Positions 1-7,436 are shown, numbered from the stretch's first letter. The stretch is 64,000 nucleotides of DNA from Candidatus Uhrbacteria bacterium (GCA_016188495.1 JACPHU010000013.1:5498-69497), one strand, 5' to 3'. Program-made: numbers and translations. Notes: generated by a model not told the origin, from the sequence alone.

Positions 1-434
1 GGAGTCAGGCGCTGTGCCCGTTCTTCCGGAGTTTCTGTCGTGGCTTGTGTCCAGCCTCGATCGACAACAATGCCATTTCTGTGATCTAGAGCCACGATAA
101 CCCGATTTTTAGGAAACTGCTTGAGCAATTCCGGATCAGCGTTTGTACCGATGATAATGGACTGTGCACCTGCACGCAGGAAATCCAATCCTGTTTCTAC
201 GTCCCGAATTCCTCCTCCTACCCGCACATCCGCCACGCGACAGATGTGTTCAATGAGATATCGATTGTGTTTCTTGCCCATGGCGGCATCCAGATCCACG
301 ACAGCCACAGGTCCAAACCGATTAAACCGGCGAGCCAATTCGATCGGGTTTTCCTGTGAAGTGATCATTAGGTCACGTCCCTGCCGAAGCTGGACCGCTT
401 TTCCACCACGTAGATCAATACTTGGAATGATCAT
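1..434 (-). CDS. HisA/HisF-family (beta/alpha)8-barrel isomerase. Partial: the N-terminus is at 434 and the gene runs off the window start. Not in the ORF track because it is truncated.
   Basis: The reverse-strand translation from the ATG at 434 reads MIIPSIDLRGGKAVQLRQGRDL...VADVRVGGGIRDVETG...IIIGTNA...VALDHRNGIVVDRGW. This matches the HisA pattern IIPAIDLKDG...VGGGIRS...IIGT...GLDAKDG. Confidence 0.6.
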   Translation of the reverse strand, partial: MIIPSIDLRGGKAVQLRQGRDLMITSQENPIELARRFNRFGPVAVVDLDAAMGKKHNRYLIEHICRVADVRVGGGIRDVETGLDFLRAGAQSIIIGTNADPELLKQFPKNRVIVALDHRNGIVVDRGWTQATTETPEERAQRLT

Positions 435-470
435 GCTTGATCTCTCTTTCCTTTGTTTTGAATTGTAGAG

Positions 471-503
471 AACAAAAACCGTTCTTGCGGTTGGCAAGAA
501 CGG
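471..503 (-). terminator. Intrinsic terminator downstream of the radical-SAM operon
   Basis: A perfect 10-bp stem CCGTTCTTGC/GCAAGAACGG with a 5-nt loop. On the minus strand it is followed by TTTTTGTT. Confidence 0.6.
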
Positions 504-562
504 CTAAAATTAGATGAAATGTTAGAAAATGTCAATAGATTTCTCTGCGACCTTGTCTGACA

Positions 563-1480
563 TTATCTGAGAACGAATGATCCGAGACGATCATTGGACG
601 GGAAAGAGAATTGTCGTAACAAATAGTCCTGGAGTTTTCCTTGGCTAAATGCCATATGGAGTCTTCCGTATCGGCGTTTTTTCATTTCCATGATCAAGGG
701 AACGTCGCAAGCATCCCAAACGATTCGGTCTAGGACAGGATCGTATTCTTGTTTCAACGAATAACGAGATGAAACAAGTTCGGCTACCGTCTCCGATTTC
801 TCTGGTGGAACACCGTGATCAAATACCCATTGGGAGTAGGGGTTGTCGGGTTTTCCTGTCCGAGTGTTTATATTGAGAACTTTGAGTGTTAGTCGTACAA
901 GCCGATCTCCGAACGCATTCAGGTAACGATCAATTTCGTTTGGAAGATCAGGGAGGTTTTCCTCTATAAGCGTGATGTTCAATCCAAGACGCGCTTTGCG
1001 AAACGTCTCTGTCTTCGTGTAGTCGCGCTTATATCCGCGCATGGTCATGTCGCGTTTTGGATCAAACGCACCACGCGTAAGTTCCATGGTCCAGTCCCAG
1101 AACAACTCGAATTTTTTTGTGTCCCAAAAGAGGTTCCCCCCTGTTTGAAAGAGATATTCTTCGAAGTGTTGAGTTTTTAGGGTGTCGCGGATTTTTCGCA
1201 GATCCTCATATCCCAGGAAAGAAGGTTCACCATTCCCTGAGATAATTCCCATGTTGAAGCGAATGCCTGCCCGACGCGTGTGTTCCAAACAGCAGACAAG
1301 CTCTTCAAGCTGATCATCTCCGAACGGATAATTCGTCGCTTTTCCCGTGCACCAAGGGCAATGCAGGTCGCACGCCTGTTGGTTGGTGATCACGAGAAAC
1401 TTTTCGAATCGTCTCAAACCATCTTCGTCAAAGACAAGAGGAATATCCTCTATATCGCATCCCGAATCCGGATTCATCAT
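563..1480 (-). CDS. Radical SAM enzyme (paralog 1, 305 aa), family unresolved
   Basis: The CxxxCxxC cluster is ACDLHCPWC, about 37 aa from the N-terminus. It also has the Gly-rich SAM motif ISGNGEPS, then FQTGG and LKVLNINT. There is no second Cys cluster, so no SPASM domain. The ATG overlaps the stop of the upstream paralog by 4 nt (ATGA). Confidence 0.8.
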   Translation of the reverse strand: MMNPDSGCDIEDIPLVFDEDGLRRFEKFLVITNQQACDLHCPWCTGKATNYPFGDDQLEELVCCLEHTRRAGIRFNMGIISGNGEPSFLGYEDLRKIRDTLKTQHFEEYLFQTGGNLFWDTKKFELFWDWTMELTRGAFDPKRDMTMRGYKRDYTKTETFRKARLGLNITLIEENLPDLPNEIDRYLNAFGDRLVRLTLKVLNINTRTGKPDNPYSQWVFDHGVPPEKSETVAELVSSRYSLKQEYDPVLDRIVWDACDVPLIMEMKKRRYGRLHMAFSQGKLQDYLLRQFSFPSNDRLGSFVLR

Positions 1481-2475
1481 AGCGTTTCCTCTGCAGCCAT
1501 GGCGAAGATTCGCTCGCGTTCTTGGGAGGTTGGCACACGAATCGGCTGGAGCTGATAGTCAACCAGATCTCCGCCGTAATAGACGACGTTTGCCAGGCCG
1601 TACTTGGCCCGTCGGGCATAGAGCGTGATCGGGATTTGCCGACCGCTTGGCAGGGCAGGCCCGTTCCACACATACCGATCCAAGAACGGATCAAAATTTT
1701 CTTCCAGACGGCAAAATGTCTGATCCATTGTGCGGACGACCTGATCTCCTTCGGCTTTGAGAAGCCCGTTTCGGAGAATCCATTGGGATTGAGGATTTTT
1801 CACTTCAGATTCATCGAACGTGTTGATGTTCAGAATTTTGAGATTAAGCCCTGCAAGGATATCTCCAAAACGTTCGACATATCGGTCGATAATGCTCAGT
1901 ACATCGCGTACGTTGTCTTTGAGAAGAACGATATTGAACACGACCTTTGCGCTTTTGAACGCATCGGTTTGCGTATAGTTCCCCTTATAGACAAGACCCA
2001 TCATGTCTTCTTCATCATCAACACTCAGACGTGTGATCTCGAAGGTGAACTCGCGTCCAAAGAGGTCGAACACGCGATCAATGAAGAAAATAGCGCCGCC
2101 TGTCTGGAACCGGCGATAGCCGAACAGGTGGAGTTTCTGATCGAACACCTGTTTGAGGTAAGCCAACTCTTCTACTGGCACGAGCGATGGTTCGCCGTTG
2201 CCAGAAATGGTGAGGTATTCGAACCAAATCCCATTGCGTTGACACTCATCCAACCGAGCAGACATCAATTCCCATCGATCTTCAACCCGTGGCCAACGAG
2301 TGATCATTGCCGTACAAAATGGGCATTTTTTGTTGCACAGATACGGATTTTCTCCCGATGCAATGGTATCTTTTCGAAACCCGCTTGTGACGACCATGAA
2401 GGTCTTATAGATGAGTTTTTCAGTTTCTGGGCACACGGCATGAGGTTGCCCATCCAAAACGACAAGTTGTTTCAC
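1477..2475 (-). CDS. Radical SAM enzyme (paralog 2, about 333 aa from a GTG start; the ORF track extends it to 2688)
   Basis: CNKKCPFC, ISGNGEPS, FQTGG and LKILNINT align with the downstream paralog. The preferred start is GTG at 2475, which has an AAAGGGG Shine-Dalgarno sequence 5 nt upstream and a TTGACA-17-TATAAA promoter at 2522-2550. The extra 71 aa of the longer ORF are low-complexity and basic. Confidence 0.7.
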   Translation of the reverse strand: MKQLVVLDGQPHAVCPETEKLIYKTFMVVTSGFRKDTIASGENPYLCNKKCPFCTAMITRWPRVEDRWELMSARLDECQRNGIWFEYLTISGNGEPSLVPVEELAYLKQVFDQKLHLFGYRRFQTGGAIFFIDRVFDLFGREFTFEITRLSVDDEEDMMGLVYKGNYTQTDAFKSAKVVFNIVLLKDNVRDVLSIIDRYVERFGDILAGLNLKILNINTFDESEVKNPQSQWILRNGLLKAEGDQVVRTMDQTFCRLEENFDPFLDRYVWNGPALPSGRQIPITLYARRAKYGLANVVYYGGDLVDYQLQPIRVPTSQERERIFAMAAEETL

Positions 2476-2521
2476 GCTTTCCCCTTTCTTTTTTCGTTGT
2501 ACTGTCCGATTCGGACGAAGG

Positions 2522-2550
2522 TTTATATGAGTTTTTTGTATTTCTGTCAA
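2522..2550 (-). promoter_or_regulatory. Sigma70-like promoter for the radical-SAM operon
   Basis: On the minus strand, TTGACA (2550-2545), then a 17-nt spacer, then TATAAA (2527-2522). It lies about 50 nt upstream of the GTG start. Confidence 0.5.
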
Positions 2551-2565
2551 TGGCACGTGGTCGCT

Positions 2566-2597
2566 AAAATGAATAACCCCGCCGCAAGCGGACGGGG
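2566..2597 (-). terminator. Intrinsic terminator just upstream of the radical-SAM promoter
   Basis: On the minus strand, a GC-rich stem CCCCGTCCGC/GCGGCGGGG with one bulge and loop TTGC, followed by UUAUUCAUUUU. Confidence 0.5.
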
Positions 2598-2599
2598 TA

Positions 2600-2808
2600 T
2601 CACGCTTCATATTCCCTGAGCGGAGGTTCGTTCGACGAACCGGAGTCGAAGGGCTCATATGCAGCCTTCGACCGTTCGACAAGCTCACGACAGACAGGCT
2701 CAGGCAATAATACGCAGCCGTTCGATCTACTCACGACAGGCAAGCTGACGGGGTATTTACTCTGAGGGAATAAAAAACCCTCCAATGGTTTGAGATGTTT
2801 TGGAAGGT
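2600..2808 (-). repeat. GC-rich structured spacer with hairpins and direct repeats. Probably a degenerate relative of the palindromic element family at 9945 and 30431.
   Basis: There is a perfect hairpin GGTTCGT-TCG-ACGAACC at 2625-2641. Direct repeats ccgttcga...ctcacgacag...caggc occur at about 2670-2705 and 2713-2750. The motif gacggggtat is duplicated. Segments GCCCtTCGACTCCG and TCTGTCGT are shared with elements A and B. Confidence 0.45.
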
Positions 2809-3501
2809 TTATCGTAGGATGGGAGAAAAACGAGTGATCGAACAATTGTCGAGGAATTGTTGCTCTTCTGGTACGAGTGTATGACCGTCATGGATTTTGG
2901 AGAATAACCAGACGATCTGATAGGCAACTTCTGGTTCTTTTGCGAAGAACACTTGTTGGCCGAGTCGTGGGTTGTCCTTGAGCAAATGAAACATCTCACA
3001 CACGACCAGGATTTTTTTCGCTAATTCCTCCGAAGGATCAAGTAAAACCAAAGGAGGGAGAAATAGCTTCTTGTTTTTGTAGATGTTAATGCTGTGTAGA
3101 GCGGTTATCGCCTCTAGAAATGTGCCCATCCTGCCAGGAAGGCAGATGTAGGCAAAAGATCCGTCAATCAGCTTTTGAATTTTTTTGGACAATGTAGAGA
3201 CGATCTGTATGTTTCCGATCTCCATCGGTCCCCACATGTGCATTGCGTAACCGATAGGTTCCAGATTTTTTCGTTTCTGTTTTTGTGCCAGCTCGTACGC
3301 GGTTAGAGTTGCCACTTCCATTGTTCCAGCTTTTTGGCCTCCTGTTGCGATTCGAAAGCCGTTTTCTGTCAGACGGACCGTTATTTCTTTGGCAAGCACA
3401 CATGCTTCGCCCGTCTCATCAACAGCTGTGCCAAAGAGAGAAACAGTTTTCGGTTTTTTGCTCACGAGTTCTCCTGTTTTAGACAAATTGATAAAGGACA
3501 A
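2809..3501 (-). CDS. LOG-family (TIGR00730-like) Rossmann-fold nucleotide-binding or nucleotide N-glycosidase-like protein, divergent
   Basis: ICLPGRMGTFLEAITA matches the LOG PGGxGTxEE motif. TGGQKAGTM matches the GGGxxGxM region. Size is 230 aa. Confidence 0.55.
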   Translation of the reverse strand: MSFINLSKTGELVSKKPKTVSLFGTAVDETGEACVLAKEITVRLTENGFRIATGGQKAGTMEVATLTAYELAQKQKRKNLEPIGYAMHMWGPMEIGNIQIVSTLSKKIQKLIDGSFAYICLPGRMGTFLEAITALHSINIYKNKKLFLPPLVLLDPSEELAKKILVVCEMFHLLKDNPRLGQQVFFAKEPEVAYQIVWLFSKIHDGHTLVPEEQQFLDNCSITRFSPILR

Positions 3502-3607: not shown

Positions 3608-4456
3608 TCATCGGGTTTTTATTTTTTGCAATTCGTAGGCTTTTAGAATATTCACTAAAAGCATCGCCACGGTCATAGGGCCTACGCCCCCTGGAACGGG
3701 CGTGATGGCGCTGATGATGTCTTTTACCGACTCCAAATCGACATCGCCCACAAGACCTTCTGGTGTTCGGGTGGTTCCTACATCGATCAAGATAGCATCT
3801 GGTTTCACAAAATCTTTTGTGATGAGTCCAGGAATGCCTTCTGCGACAATCAATAGATCGGCTTGTGTTGTTTTGTCTGCAAGATGTTTATCTTCTGCTT
3901 GAGTCACAGTTGTTTGAACACCTGATTCTTTTAAGAGAATTTCAAGAGGCTCAGCAAACAGGGGGGAGGACACGATCGTTGCATGGGGAGGAAGGGGTCC
4001 TGTTCCAACGGCTTCACGAATAAGGCGCATCACACCCAGGGCTACGGCAGAAATTAAAGATGGTTGGTGAGCTCTGAGTTTTTCGAGGTTAGCAGGATGA
4101 AATCCATCAACATCTTTGAGAGGATTGATGGCAAAAATAACGTTATTTGCATTTTGAGAGGGGAGAGGCAACTGCACTAAAATGCCATGGATATCATTTC
4201 GTCTATTAAGTTCTTGAATGTTATTGATGAGCGTTTGTTCGGGTTCCGTGGCCGGATACAAAAATAATTCAAAATGAATTCCTACCTCTTCGCAAGCCTT
4301 TCGTTTCAGCTGGACATAGATGTGCGATGCAGGATCATCTCCAACTAAAAGAATGGCCAGTCCAGGGGTGGAAGGCATCGTTTGGACACGGGCTTGGATT
4401 TTTTTTTGAATGCGCGCGGCAAGCGCTTTCCCGTTTAAAATATGAGACATAGACAA
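3608..4456 (-). CDS. folD: Bifunctional methylenetetrahydrofolate dehydrogenase/cyclohydrolase
   Basis: The N-terminus ILNGKALAARIQKKIQARV and overall FolD architecture are present, with VGDDPASHIYV. Confidence 0.9.
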   Translation of the reverse strand: MSMSHILNGKALAARIQKKIQARVQTMPSTPGLAILLVGDDPASHIYVQLKRKACEEVGIHFELFLYPATEPEQTLINNIQELNRRNDIHGILVQLPLPSQNANNVIFAINPLKDVDGFHPANLEKLRAHQPSLISAVALGVMRLIREAVGTGPLPPHATIVSSPLFAEPLEILLKESGVQTTVTQAEDKHLADKTTQADLLIVAEGIPGLITKDFVKPDAILIDVGTTRTPEGLVGDVDLESVKDIISAITPVPGGVGPMTVAMLLVNILKAYELQKIKTR

Positions 4457-4467
4457 CAGTAAAGATT

Positions 4468-4495
4468 ATTTTACACGAAAACCCTTTTTTTTCAA
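4468..4495 (-). promoter_or_regulatory. Sigma70-like promoter for folD with a very short leader
   Basis: On the minus strand, TTGAAA (4495-4490), a 16-nt spacer, then TAAAAT (4473-4468). The -10 box ends only about 11 nt before the folD ATG. Confidence 0.35.
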
Positions 4496-4527
4496 TTAAA
4501 AAATGCATCGTAAGATGCATCGTAGAG

Positions 4528-5484
4528 TTAGAATTTCGCCGAAATTCGTTGGCAGATACACCAACTATTTAGTTCTGTGAGTCTGGACTCATGGATGGTC
4601 AGGACTTCGTATGGCTCCTCCACGATCGTTTTGGGGACTACTGGATCGAACCGTTCAATGAGCGGACTGGCTCCATGCGGTCGATAGGGAACGATGCGCA
4701 GATGGACATATCCCAGCCGCTGGTTCATCCCAATAACGGGGGTCACGTCCCATGGTGTTTGAGTTTTCATGGCTGTGACAGTTCCGCCGACCTCGCCCTT
4801 CCACAGACGCGCCATTGAGATTCCGATAGAACCATCAGCGGTTTCCGCGTCTTTGAACAACCCGGTATGGACCATATCCTGCACAATTTTAGAGCGTCTG
4901 TGCAGCATGCTTCGCAGAAGGAGATATTGTTCTCGGAGAGGGGTTTCGGGATTTGCTACCATCGGTTGAACACGTTCCTGACGCAGCAAAAGACGATGGG
5001 TTTTGCTGGAGCCCGGACGGAAATAATACATCTCCTGGCTATTGACGTCGCCGATACACACAGCAACGACTTTCCCATTTACCACAAGTGCCGACATGGT
5101 TCCAATGCCATGAGACTGTTTTCGATCCAGTGCTGAAGTTCCATCGTAAGGATCGAAGACGAAGTAAATATCCATTCCCTCAAGTGCACAAGGAATATTA
5201 AGTTTGTGTTCCTCTCCGATGAGACCGAATCCGAAAGGTTTTACAAACTGTTCTGTTATGAGTTTCTGATACATGTCAGAAGCCGCAATATCTGCCTTGC
5301 TTACCTTATCGGGACTCCCGTCCTCCTTGAGTCCCTTTATCGTAAATTCGTTATGAAACTGGAATGCCGGAAATCCCATGATGACACGCCTTGCGCATTC
5401 CTTCATCAGGTTACCAATCTGAGAAGCCATCATCTCAACAAAGGCTTCCCCACCCATTACTTCCACGAGCCTTTTTGCATTCAT
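4528..5484 (-). CDS. Inositol monophosphatase-family phosphatase (SuhB/HisN-like)
   Basis: The metal-binding motif FDPYDGT (DPxDGT) is present, along with EEH and the IMPase fold pattern. The start is reset to the ATG at 5484 (MNAKRLVEV), which has an AAGGAG Shine-Dalgarno sequence 9 nt upstream. The ORF-track start at 5541 reads through that RBS. Confidence 0.75.
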   Translation of the reverse strand: MNAKRLVEVMGGEAFVEMMASQIGNLMKECARRVIMGFPAFQFHNEFTIKGLKEDGSPDKVSKADIAASDMYQKLITEQFVKPFGFGLIGEEHKLNIPCALEGMDIYFVFDPYDGTSALDRKQSHGIGTMSALVVNGKVVAVCIGDVNSQEMYYFRPGSSKTHRLLLRQERVQPMVANPETPLREQYLLLRSMLHRRSKIVQDMVHTGLFKDAETADGSIGISMARLWKGEVGGTVTAMKTQTPWDVTPVIGMNQRLGYVHLRIVPYRPHGASPLIERFDPVVPKTIVEEPYEVLTIHESRLTELNSWCICQRISAKF

Positions 5485-5561
5485 GAGTATTCGCTCCTTA
5501 TTTAGGGGGTTTTCAAGTAATGTGGAGACCAAAGATAGCATGTGATATGCTTTTTGTCAAT

Positions 5562-6158
5562 ATGAAACGACTTATTTTTGCTACGCACAACACAGGAAAA
5601 GTGAGAGAAATGCAGCAGCTTCTTTCTGATATGGATATTCATGTTCTTAGTGCTGAACAAGCGGGTATTTTGGAAGACGTAGAAGAGGATGGAGAGACCT
5701 TTGAACAAAATGCTTTAAAGAAAGCCCGATTTGTTGCCAGCAAAAGTCAGGAATGGTCTGTGGGTGATGACTCGGGTATTACCATTGATGCTCTGGGAGG
5801 ACGTCCAGGTATTTTTACGGCTCGTTGGGCTGGCGAAGGGGCAAGCGATGAACAATTGATTGATCATACGCTTGATCAGTTGAAGGAAGTACAAGAAAGG
5901 GATCGAGGAGCGTCTTTTTATTCTGTCATCGCACTAGTGTCTCCTCAAGGAGAAGAGTATCTTTTTGAGGGTGTTGTTGAAGGAGATGTTACTCTTGAGC
6001 CTCGTGGACAGCATCTTCCTAAGCTTCCTTATGATGTGATTTTTCAACCAAAGGGTTTTGAACAAACGTTTGGAGAGATGTCAGAACAGGAGAAAAATCA
6101 GTTAAGCCTTCGAGGAAGAGCGTTTGAAAAATTGAAACTTTTTTTGAGGACAAAATGA
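5562..6158 (+). CDS. rdgB: Non-canonical purine NTP pyrophosphatase (RdgB/Ham1)
   Basis: MKRLIFATHNTGKVREMQQLL matches the RdgB N-terminus. Length is about 198 aa. The start was trimmed from the ORF-track start at 5520 to the ATG at 5562. Confidence 0.85.
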   Translation: MKRLIFATHNTGKVREMQQLLSDMDIHVLSAEQAGILEDVEEDGETFEQNALKKARFVASKSQEWSVGDDSGITIDALGGRPGIFTARWAGEGASDEQLIDHTLDQLKEVQERDRGASFYSVIALVSPQGEEYLFEGVVEGDVTLEPRGQHLPKLPYDVIFQPKGFEQTFGEMSEQEKNQLSLRGRAFEKLKLFLRTK

Positions 6159-6194: not shown

Positions 6195-7436
6195 TTAGTA
6201 ATGAAGATCGGGATAAAGAGGGAAGTGGCTAGTGAGGTTTTTCACCTCTTCTGCGATTGCGATAAGTTTTGTGTTGTCATCCCAGTGAGTAATCGCTTCG
6301 TCGATCCAACGTCCGATTTGTTTCATTTCCTCCTCTTTCATTCCGCGGGTGGTCAGAGCCGGAGTTCCTAAACGGATACCGGATGGGTCCATCGGGGATC
6401 TTGTATCGTCTGGAATCATGTTTTTATTTACGGTGATTCCTGCTTTATCCAGAGCTGTTTCTGCTTGTTGACCCGTGACTCCTTTGGGGGTTACGTCTAC
6501 TAGCAAAAGATGGTTATCCGTTCCTCCGAACATCAGTTTATATCCTTTTTCTTGGAAAATCCCTTCAAGCACTTTTGCATTTTTCTTTATTTGTTGTGCG
6601 TATGTTTTGAATTCTGGGAGAGCGGCTTCTTTAAACGCTACGGCTTTGGCCGCAATGACGTTTTCGTGTGGACCTCCCTGAAGGCCTGGGAAGACAGCTT
6701 TATCAACGGCTTTTTTATGTTCTTCCTTGCACATGATCATTCCGCCTCGTGGACCTCGGAGCGTTTTGTGAGTGGTTGTTGAAACAAGATCAAACAGGGG
6801 AACCGGATTGTTCATTTCTCCTGCGGCGATCAGTCCTGCAATATGGGCGATATCCGCCATGGTTCGCGCACCTACTTCATCAGCAATCTTTTTGATGCGT
6901 GCATAATCGATCTCTCGAGAATACCCAGAATAACCAACCAAGATTAAGTGCGGTTTATGGGTATGGGCCATTTTTTCAATCTCATCGTAATCAATGATTC
7001 CCTCTGGAGTTGTCTTGTATCGGATAAAATTCCAGACTCCGGCGATAAACGTGACGGGATGGCCGTGAGTCAGGTGGCCTCCATGAGAAAGATCCATTCC
7101 GAGAATCGTTCCTCCGGGAGGAACCAGAGCCACATAAGAGGCAAGGTTCGCTGGGGCTCCCGAGAGCGGTTGGACATTGACATGTTCGGCGCCAAAGAGG
7201 TGTTTTGCTCGATCTATCGCCAGTTGTTCCACCACATCAATCTCCTGGCATCCGCCGTAATAGCGTTTGCCGGGGTAACCTTCGGAGTATTTATTTGTGG
7301 CGATGGATCCAAGCGCTTCCAACACCGCAGAGGAAACAAAATTTTCAGAAGGGATCATCTCAAGGCCGTTTTGTTGTCGTACAAGTTCTCGATTCAGAGC
7401 AGAAGAAAGATCCGGGTCAAAAGAAGAAAGTGTCAT
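6195..7436 (-). CDS. glyA: Serine hydroxymethyltransferase
   Basis: EMIPSENFVS, the PLP-lysine region and full-length GlyA (413 aa). Confidence 0.95.
   Translation of the reverse strand: MTLSSFDPDLSSALNRELVRQQNGLEMIPSENFVSSAVLEALGSIATNKYSEGYPGKRYYGGCQEIDVVEQLAIDRAKHLFGAEHVNVQPLSGAPANLASYVALVPPGGTILGMDLSHGGHLTHGHPVTFIAGVWNFIRYKTTPEGIIDYDEIEKMAHTHKPHLILVGYSGYSREIDYARIKKIADEVGARTMADIAHIAGLIAAGEMNNPVPLFDLVSTTTHKTLRGPRGGMIMCKEEHKKAVDKAVFPGLQGGPHENVIAAKAVAFKEAALPEFKTYAQQIKKNAKVLEGIFQEKGYKLMFGGTDNHLLLVDVTPKGVTGQQAETALDKAGITVNKNMIPDDTRSPMDPSGIRLGTPALTTRGMKEEEMKQIGRWIDEAITHWDDNTKLIAIAEEVKNLTSHFPLYPDLHY

Follow-up and report, generated by a model that had tools for sequence, protein, structure and literature searches.

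In a 64,000-nucleotide stretch of DNA from a Candidatus Uhrbacteria bacterium (GCA_016188495.1, JACPHU010000013.1:5498-69497; hereafter the window), two adjacent genes on the minus strand, rSAM-A (563-1480, an open reading frame (ORF) of 305 residues) and rSAM-B (1477-2475, encoding a radical S-adenosylmethionine (SAM) enzyme of 332 residues with a GTG start), represent a small, rare and unnamed radical SAM family whose members nearly always adjoin, or are fused to, genes for nucleotide handling. The pair is not an autonomous orphan, and it probably modifies a nucleotide rather than acting alone; the finding is more interesting in context than in isolation.

Pairwise comparison of the two proteins yields 35% identity over 275 residues (E 2e-53), and the stop codon of rSAM-B overlaps the start codon of rSAM-A in an ATGA sequence (1477-1480, minus), confirming the two overlapping paralogs reported in a preliminary description made from the sequence alone. 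The overlap is consistent with translational coupling of rSAM-B to rSAM-A, and an AGAGGA Shine-Dalgarno-like element inside the 3' end of the rSAM-B coding region serves the position before rSAM-A. The maximal ORF for rSAM-B spans 1477-2688 (minus), and the GTG at 2475, which is preceded by the Shine-Dalgarno-like GGGGAAAG, was chosen as the start by aligning the N-termini of homologues. The expected [4Fe-4S]/SAM cluster motifs were located in both proteins (CNKKCPFC of rSAM-B at 2314-2337 and CDLHCPWC of rSAM-A at 1349-1372, both minus), as were the SGNGEPS, FQTGG and LK[VI]LNINT motifs common to the two. In the family alignment the CxxxCxxC cysteines and GNGEP are invariant; these three N-terminal Cys residues are the only ones kept, with no conserved SPASM/twitch or auxiliary-cluster cysteines, in agreement with the previously noted absence of a SPASM domain.

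The CxxxCxxC motif, a SAM-binding motif resembling GGE and the fold of a partial TIM barrel place both proteins in the radical SAM superfamily. Within it, neither reaches any threshold in Pfam, NCBIfam or PADLOC (PF04055 scores 15 bits for rSAM-B, and rSAM-A has no Pfam match), so that full-length membership of one characterised family is not supported by the profile searches. The AlphaFold2 model of rSAM-B (predicted local distance difference test score, pLDDT, 91) resembles dozens of radical SAM structures, with viperin within the top three fold matches, and a fold search of BFVD gave generic radical SAM matches only, with a TM-score of approximately 0.5. The nearest nucleotide-using folds are those of MoaA and viperin, two of the four named in the QueE/MoaA/viperin/NrdG-like placement proposed earlier.

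The rarity of the family is apparent from searches of different depth. A word-indexed search of 5.8 billion proteins returned 16 relatives of rSAM-B and five of rSAM-A, all metagenomic or from Patescibacteria, one of the matches being 100% identical and annotated as Candidatus Uhrbacteria. When 1.84 billion representatives were searched exhaustively with a profile, 275 matches were obtained at E<=1e-3, falling to 50 at E<=1e-30, with a weak tail consisting of unnamed MoaA/viperin-like proteins that all fall under every curated cutoff. In scans for further loci, 185,579 species genomes yielded 63, metagenomes 42 and viral sequences six; no relatives were found in cultured phages or plasmids, and neither the family nor either of the operons described below turned up in full-text literature searches.

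In a neighbour-joining tree the A-type sequences form a single clade beside the Patescibacteria B-type, and A-type genes are confined to Uhrbacteria-like genomes, where each lies immediately 3' of a B-type gene. The A-type keeps 31 of the 49 family-conserved positions, including CxxxCxxC and GNGEP, which bears out the earlier view that rSAM-A is not a decayed copy. All A-type sequences carry the K24E, K240P/A/G and Y300N/S/H substitutions, and three of the five, the window copy among them, also R122L. The retention of the motifs together with these shared substitutions indicates an old, lineage-specific duplicate with an altered pocket, and rSAM-A is, from its residues, probably still catalytic. 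The best reading is that B is the ancestral family type and A its lineage-specific, diverged duplicate.

Outside Patescibacteria, most loci are found in metagenome-assembled genomes (MAGs) from animal gut or rumen, labelled as Clostridia, Bacilli/'Tenericutes', Alphaproteobacteria, Gastranaerophilales or Muribaculaceae. Clustering of their ORFs, together with custom hidden Markov models (HMMs), revealed a stereotyped operon formed by a PnuC-like transporter (PF04973), a deoxyribosyltransferase-like protein (PF05014, below the Pfam cutoff) and the radical SAM gene (L015-L074 and L090-L124, e.g. L020:8925-13595). A P-loop kinase, an NrtR-like regulator and Ham1 often come next, and the variants in Alphaproteobacteria have NMNAT-like, CofE-like and HD-like genes as well. 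In the kinase of the gut operon the N-terminal half is weakly CYTH-like, its best PDB matches being 2fbl and 3typ (E approximately 0.1), the former (NE1496) presumably a CYTH protein. Partners were counted at distances of up to 5 kb from the radical SAM gene in the 65 groups left by dereplication at 90% identity. A PnuC-like gene is present in 50 of these, a separate deoxyribosyltransferase-like gene in 42, with nine more where it is apparently fused, as judged by ORF length, a Ham1 or MazG-like gene in approximately 24 and a kinase in approximately 21; the A-type paralog and HisG or PurC-like genes are found in five groups each. The full set of radical SAM, kinase, nucleoside triphosphate (NTP) hydrolase, PnuC-like and deoxyribosyltransferase-like genes occurs in 11 of the 65.

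Gene fusions link the radical SAM domain to the same types of protein: a deoxyribosyltransferase-like/SLOG domain at either end, a cytidylate kinase, or a MazG-like domain. The PnuC-like, radical SAM and deoxyribosyltransferase-like genes are also consecutive on a 416-kb phage contig (L076:9385-11298), and on other phage contigs a MazG-like gene and the radical SAM gene are followed by a gene for a 223-residue protein (L077:10806-11477, L080:10815-11486). This protein resembles, as judged by eye only, the catalytic core of class-II aminoacyl-tRNA synthetases, and such a putative neighbour may hint at an aminoacyl-nucleotide product. The great similarity, again by eye, of radical SAM proteins from differently labelled phyla, along with the phage copy, suggests horizontal spread.

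In the window the context is different, and part of it lies beyond the window edge. The preliminary description had found no pathway gene in the 64 kb; this is incorrect, since positions 3-434 (minus) encode the start of a HisA-HisI-HisE fusion (PF00977, E 1.8e-28), the first 144 codons of a 415-residue protein cut by the window edge. A Logan contig (L008), identical to window positions 1-2604 and extending 5385 nucleotides further, completes the picture, with the coding-strand order B, A, a hairpin, HisA-HisI-HisE, a short HisG, a 319-residue protein, a Ham1-like protein, a 129-residue protein and a 110-residue ORF. NCBIfam scores for the fusion are 198 bits for HisIE and 144 bits for HisA versus 40 bits for HisF, the short HisG scores 129 bits with TIGR00070, and the 129-residue product is a dTMP-kinase-like P-loop protein. 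For the 319-residue protein, PDB profile searches match PurC only (E 1.3e-6, then 2.6e-9), and the top 38 Foldseek matches of its AlphaFold2 model (pLDDT 88.5) are all SAICAR synthetases, with E values down to 5e-16; by profile and predicted fold it is SAICAR-synthetase-like (PurC-like). The cassette copy of Ham1 (L008:5005-5733), which contains insertions, is 25% identical to a canonical RdgB-like paralog in the window (5520-6158, plus).

The cassette (L008:2171-6119, also in L082, L083 and L084, with the HisA-HisI-HisE fusion present or absent) is much commoner than the radical SAM gene. PurC-like proteins number at least 446, mostly in Patescibacteria but also in some Myxococcota and Oligoflexia, many of them fused to Ham1 and one forming a triple fusion with kinase and Ham1. 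Cassettes that do not contain the radical SAM gene include those of a Falkowbacteria-type contig, where PurA is inserted, and of a Polyangiaceae MAG, among others.

In five Patescibacteria-type lineages the radical SAM gene adjoins HisG and/or PurC-like genes. In the window genome B and A precede the cassette; in L006/7 and L009 a lone B-type gene is followed by HisG, PurC-like and Ham1, with kinase and HisA-IE also present in L006/7; in L089 the PurC-like gene is directly upstream of B, which is followed by A; and in the AT-rich L010-12 MazG-like, HisG, kinase and Ham1 genes accompany a B-like gene. B and A stand alone in L001-3/L014/L088 and in L004/5/L013/L086/L087, L004 having a Maf pyrophosphatase adjoining the pair. 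The pair occurs without any cassette in the L001-5 loci, and the adjacency to the cassette recurs in different gene orders. Downstream of the radical SAM gene in L006 and L009 lie a terminator-like hairpin and, after it, a TTGACA-17-TAxxAT site; with a hairpin and a promoter between the units there and in the window, the two look separately transcribed and yet are repeatedly co-located. The L010 contig, which also encodes SSB, TyrRS and DUF723 proteins, contains a further, distinct radical SAM gene (4733-5449), with cysteines in the C-terminal part, and, at 4141-4705, two split radical SAM-like ORFs upstream of the MazG-like/HisG/kinase/Ham1/radical SAM block.

From these data we infer that the substrate is a nucleotide or a nucleoside, the firmest of the deductions drawn here, because independent fusions, approximately 100 conserved neighbourhoods and the nearest fold all point in that direction: the neighbourhoods hold kinases, NTP phosphohydrolases of three kinds, enzymes of N-glycosyl transfer and a nucleoside-type transporter, and the fold is nearest to MoaA and viperin, two radical SAM enzymes that use nucleotides and attack the ribose. 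In the mechanism that is proposed, SAM would be reductively cleaved on the single CxxxCxxC cluster of each enzyme, and the resulting 5'-deoxyadenosyl radical would attack a nucleoside phosphate, probably a purine, most likely at the ribose as MoaA does with GTP and viperin with CTP. The phosphorylation state would be set, or the producer protected, by the P-loop kinase together with an NTP pyrophosphatase of the Ham1, MazG-like or CYTH-like type, and an N-glycosyl-transfer enzyme, the deoxyribosyltransferase-like protein in gut bacteria and phages and HisG in Patescibacteria, would make or swap the glycosidic bond. The pair would form its own transcription unit at the head of the HisA-HisIE/HisG/SAICAR-synthetase-like/Ham1/kinase cassette, whose genes cover the enzymes acting early in the coformycin/pentostatin pathway; B would keep the ancestral family activity, and A, with its changed pocket residues, would carry out a second radical step or take a second substrate. 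That B and A are catalytically competent radical SAM enzymes acting on nucleotides or nucleosides by this full mechanism is the reading tentatively preferred, with a little less than even confidence. The site of attack, the division of roles between A and B and a pathway shared by pair and cassette are likewise conjectural; what the data establish is the paralogy of the two genes, their intact motifs, the neighbourhood of the fold, the rarity of the family and its gene contexts and fusions.

A different division of labour is conceivable but unlikely, namely that the radical SAM enzymes rearrange the purine-derived heterocycle of cassette intermediates (phosphoribosyl-ATP (PR-ATP), ProFAR, PRFAR or a ring-expanded, 8-ketocoformycin-type nucleotide), which would join pair and cassette in a single linear route to a novel base or nucleoside. 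Radical SAM enzymes that rearrange heterocycles exist (QueE, ThiC), a complete HisG, HisE, HisI and HisA set adjoins the pair, and the proximity of HisG and/or PurC-like genes in five lineages, with PurC-like immediately upstream of B in one of them, would be accounted for. However, approximately 50 of the 65 groups have PnuC-like and deoxyribosyltransferase-like partners in place of HisG/PurC-like genes, the cassette is widespread in genomes without the radical SAM gene, and in three genomes a terminator and a promoter part the two units.

The partner genes would also suit housekeeping salvage, in which imported nucleosides undergo radical deoxygenation or conversion, for example in a ribonucleotide-reductase-independent route to deoxy-sugars, with the deoxyribosyltransferase-like protein, kinase, Ham1 and PnuC-like transporter as usual salvage partners. 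The NrtR-like regulator agrees with such a role, the hosts belong to small-genome, salvage-dependent lineages and the housekeeping genes FolD, GlyA and MurC are among the neighbours of the pair in the window. The very rare and patchy occurrence of the family in the species genomes disfavours an essential role, however, and no reductase partner was found in the gene contexts, making salvage improbable.

An equally low probability is given to a truly autonomous two-step modification of tRNA or a cofactor, with the HisG adjacency as inherited synteny. The preliminary description had called the operon autonomous, which is partly correct: the pair does have its own sigma-70-like promoter, TTGACA-17-TATAAA (2522-2550, minus), 47 nucleotides upstream of the rSAM-B GTG, which was confirmed and is the single match in the 64 kb as compared with 0.02 expected from shuffled sequences. 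Of the two terminators said to bracket the operon, that located 3' of rSAM-A (477-505, minus) is strong (12 bp followed by TTTTGTT, fold z-score -4.75), whereas the GC-rich hairpin upstream of the promoter (2576-2598, minus) is a weaker one of 8 bp with a poor U-tract that folds no better than shuffled sequence and probably ends the upstream LOG-like gene. The cassette-free pairs agree with autonomy. Against it are the adjoining cassette itself, which recurs in varied gene orders in lineages just 45-60% identical to B, and the fusions with nucleotide enzymes elsewhere in the family.

Antiviral defence of the viperin type, yielding chain-terminating nucleotides, is more doubtful still. Besides the fold match and the sporadic distribution of the family, the kinase fusions and adjacency recall the viperin-CMPK2 arrangement. 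However, rSAM-A and rSAM-B have no PADLOC match, on which ground assignment to a defence system was rejected, the NCBIfam model for viperin gives 11.6 bits where 180 are required, phages also carry the family, and the operons with transporter and NrtR-like regulator genes are not a defence-island context. Finally, a pair of maturases for ribosomally synthesised and post-translationally modified peptides (RiPPs), or a glycyl-radical enzyme activase, is very improbable given that SPASM/twitch cysteines are missing from the family alignment and that no precursor peptide, glycyl-radical enzyme, peptidase or exporter was found in any context examined.

As to the remaining features of the window, a second promoter-like site read from the sequence, TTGACA-17-TAATTT (507-535, minus), lies in the spacer between rSAM-A and HisA-IE immediately upstream of the strong hairpin, the reverse of the order in L006 and L009, where the hairpin precedes the promoter. 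This putative promoter could be a chance match or part of a leader/attenuator arrangement for the HisA-IE cassette; a riboswitch or attenuator of a catalogued type in the spacers was rejected, as no Rfam family matched in the window or in L008. Across the window ARAGORN detected no tRNA genes, and no Rfam family reached its gathering threshold. A LOG/SLOG-like protein of 230 residues is encoded at 2809-3501 (minus; PF03641 at E 9e-5 and PF18306 at E 1e-3, neither reaching its cutoff). It shares a superfamily with the deoxyribosyltransferase-like partner found elsewhere, but its gene is not kept beside the radical SAM gene in other Patescibacteria loci, and it is uncertain that it belongs to the module. 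Its identification as the counterpart of the fused deoxyribosyltransferase-like domain was discarded, there being no pairwise or HMM similarity. An inositol-monophosphatase-family ORF (4528-5541, minus) and the canonical Ham1 gene are divergent, with annotated starts overlapping by 22 nucleotides, and are bordered by FolD (3608-4456) and GlyA (6195-7436); the L009 cluster is likewise bordered by SHMT and FolD.

Comparison with known systems sets the family apart from its nearest relatives. With viperin (RSAD2; NF038283) it shares 14% identity and lacks a match at cutoff, it has its own N-terminal beta-strands and C-terminal beta-sheet, and its partners are deoxyribosyltransferase-like, PnuC-like, Ham1 and HisG genes instead of defence islands. 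The three C-terminal cysteines that bind the second [4Fe-4S] cluster of MoaA, the GTP 3',8-cyclase, were not found in either protein, neither of which matches TIGR02666, and no MoaC or molybdopterin genes are nearby. QueE, the 7-carboxy-7-deazaguanine synthase, a lead of the preliminary description, has a similarly small radical SAM core and would share a nucleotide-derived substrate, but a model match, a close fold and nearby queC, queD or folE genes are all missing. The association of a small activase with a neighbouring glycyl-radical enzyme, typical of NrdG/PflA-type proteins, and the Cys-rich C-terminal auxiliary-cluster domain of SPASM/twitch maturases were not observed either. If the proposed function is correct, the family would be a new nucleotide-directed branch of radical SAM enzymes alongside MoaA, viperin and QueE, and the informative set of partners, above all the deoxyribosyltransferase-like, cytidylate-kinase and MazG-like fusions, makes the search for the substrate narrow and directly testable.

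The cassette, for its part, resembles the pentostatin, coformycin and adechlorin clusters in containing a dedicated HisG and a SAICAR-synthetase homologue, as well as HisA, here accompanied by HisI and HisE. The counterparts are PenA/AdeC for HisG, PenC/AdeA/CofB for the SAICAR-synthetase-fold protein and AdeK for HisA; CofB is reported by Ren et al. 2020 to act on a histidine-pathway intermediate. In contrast, the NADPH-dependent short-chain dehydrogenase PenB/CofA, responsible for 8-keto reduction, was not found in the cassette loci: in precomputed Pfam listings no called gene of L006, L008, L009 or L082-L084 matched the family, several small ORFs being without any Pfam match. Furthermore, Ham1 and the small kinase are conserved, and even fused, cassette partners that are absent from the known clusters, the host organisms belong to the Patescibacteria and not to Actinomycetota or fungi, and in most cases the cassette has no radical SAM gene beside it. 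The missing dehydrogenase and the independent spread of the cassette weigh against a simple coformycin reading.

Pentostatin, coformycin and adechlorin clusters typically adjoin a second, independent nucleoside-analogue pathway (PMC12648386, PMC13055916), an arrangement that the radical SAM unit beside the cassette resembles. By extension, the pair might make an adenosine-type nucleotide modified in its sugar, which would be an antimetabolite or a chain terminator, and the cassette a coformycin-like deaminase inhibitor protecting it. This specific proposal is a long shot; if true, it would give the candidate-phyla-radiation bacteria their first 'protector-protege' nucleoside-antibiotic pair, based on a novel type of radical SAM chemistry shared with the PnuC-like/deoxyribosyltransferase-like operons of gut bacteria and phages.

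More broadly, two uncharacterised modules would be tied to nucleoside and antimetabolite chemistry in organisms thought to be almost devoid of specialised metabolism, namely the HisG/PurC-like/Ham1/kinase cassette of hundreds of Patescibacteria and the PnuC-like/deoxyribosyltransferase-like/radical SAM operon found across gut phyla and phages; novel analogues of nucleosides, with the NTPases that give resistance to them, are of practical interest for antivirals and antibiotics. A precedent for the gene set is provided by thmABC of Photorhabdus, in which genes for a radical SAM enzyme, for a nucleoside kinase and for an NTPase of self-resistance are associated with 4'-thiothymidine (PMC12691670); in terms of gene content, the same combination of radical SAM, kinase and NTP hydrolase genes is found in the window genome as the pair, the small kinase and Ham1. 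The same three-part logic applies to AbmM/AbmJ/AbmG of albomycin, where a sugar-modified nucleoside is formed and two radical SAM enzymes are used.

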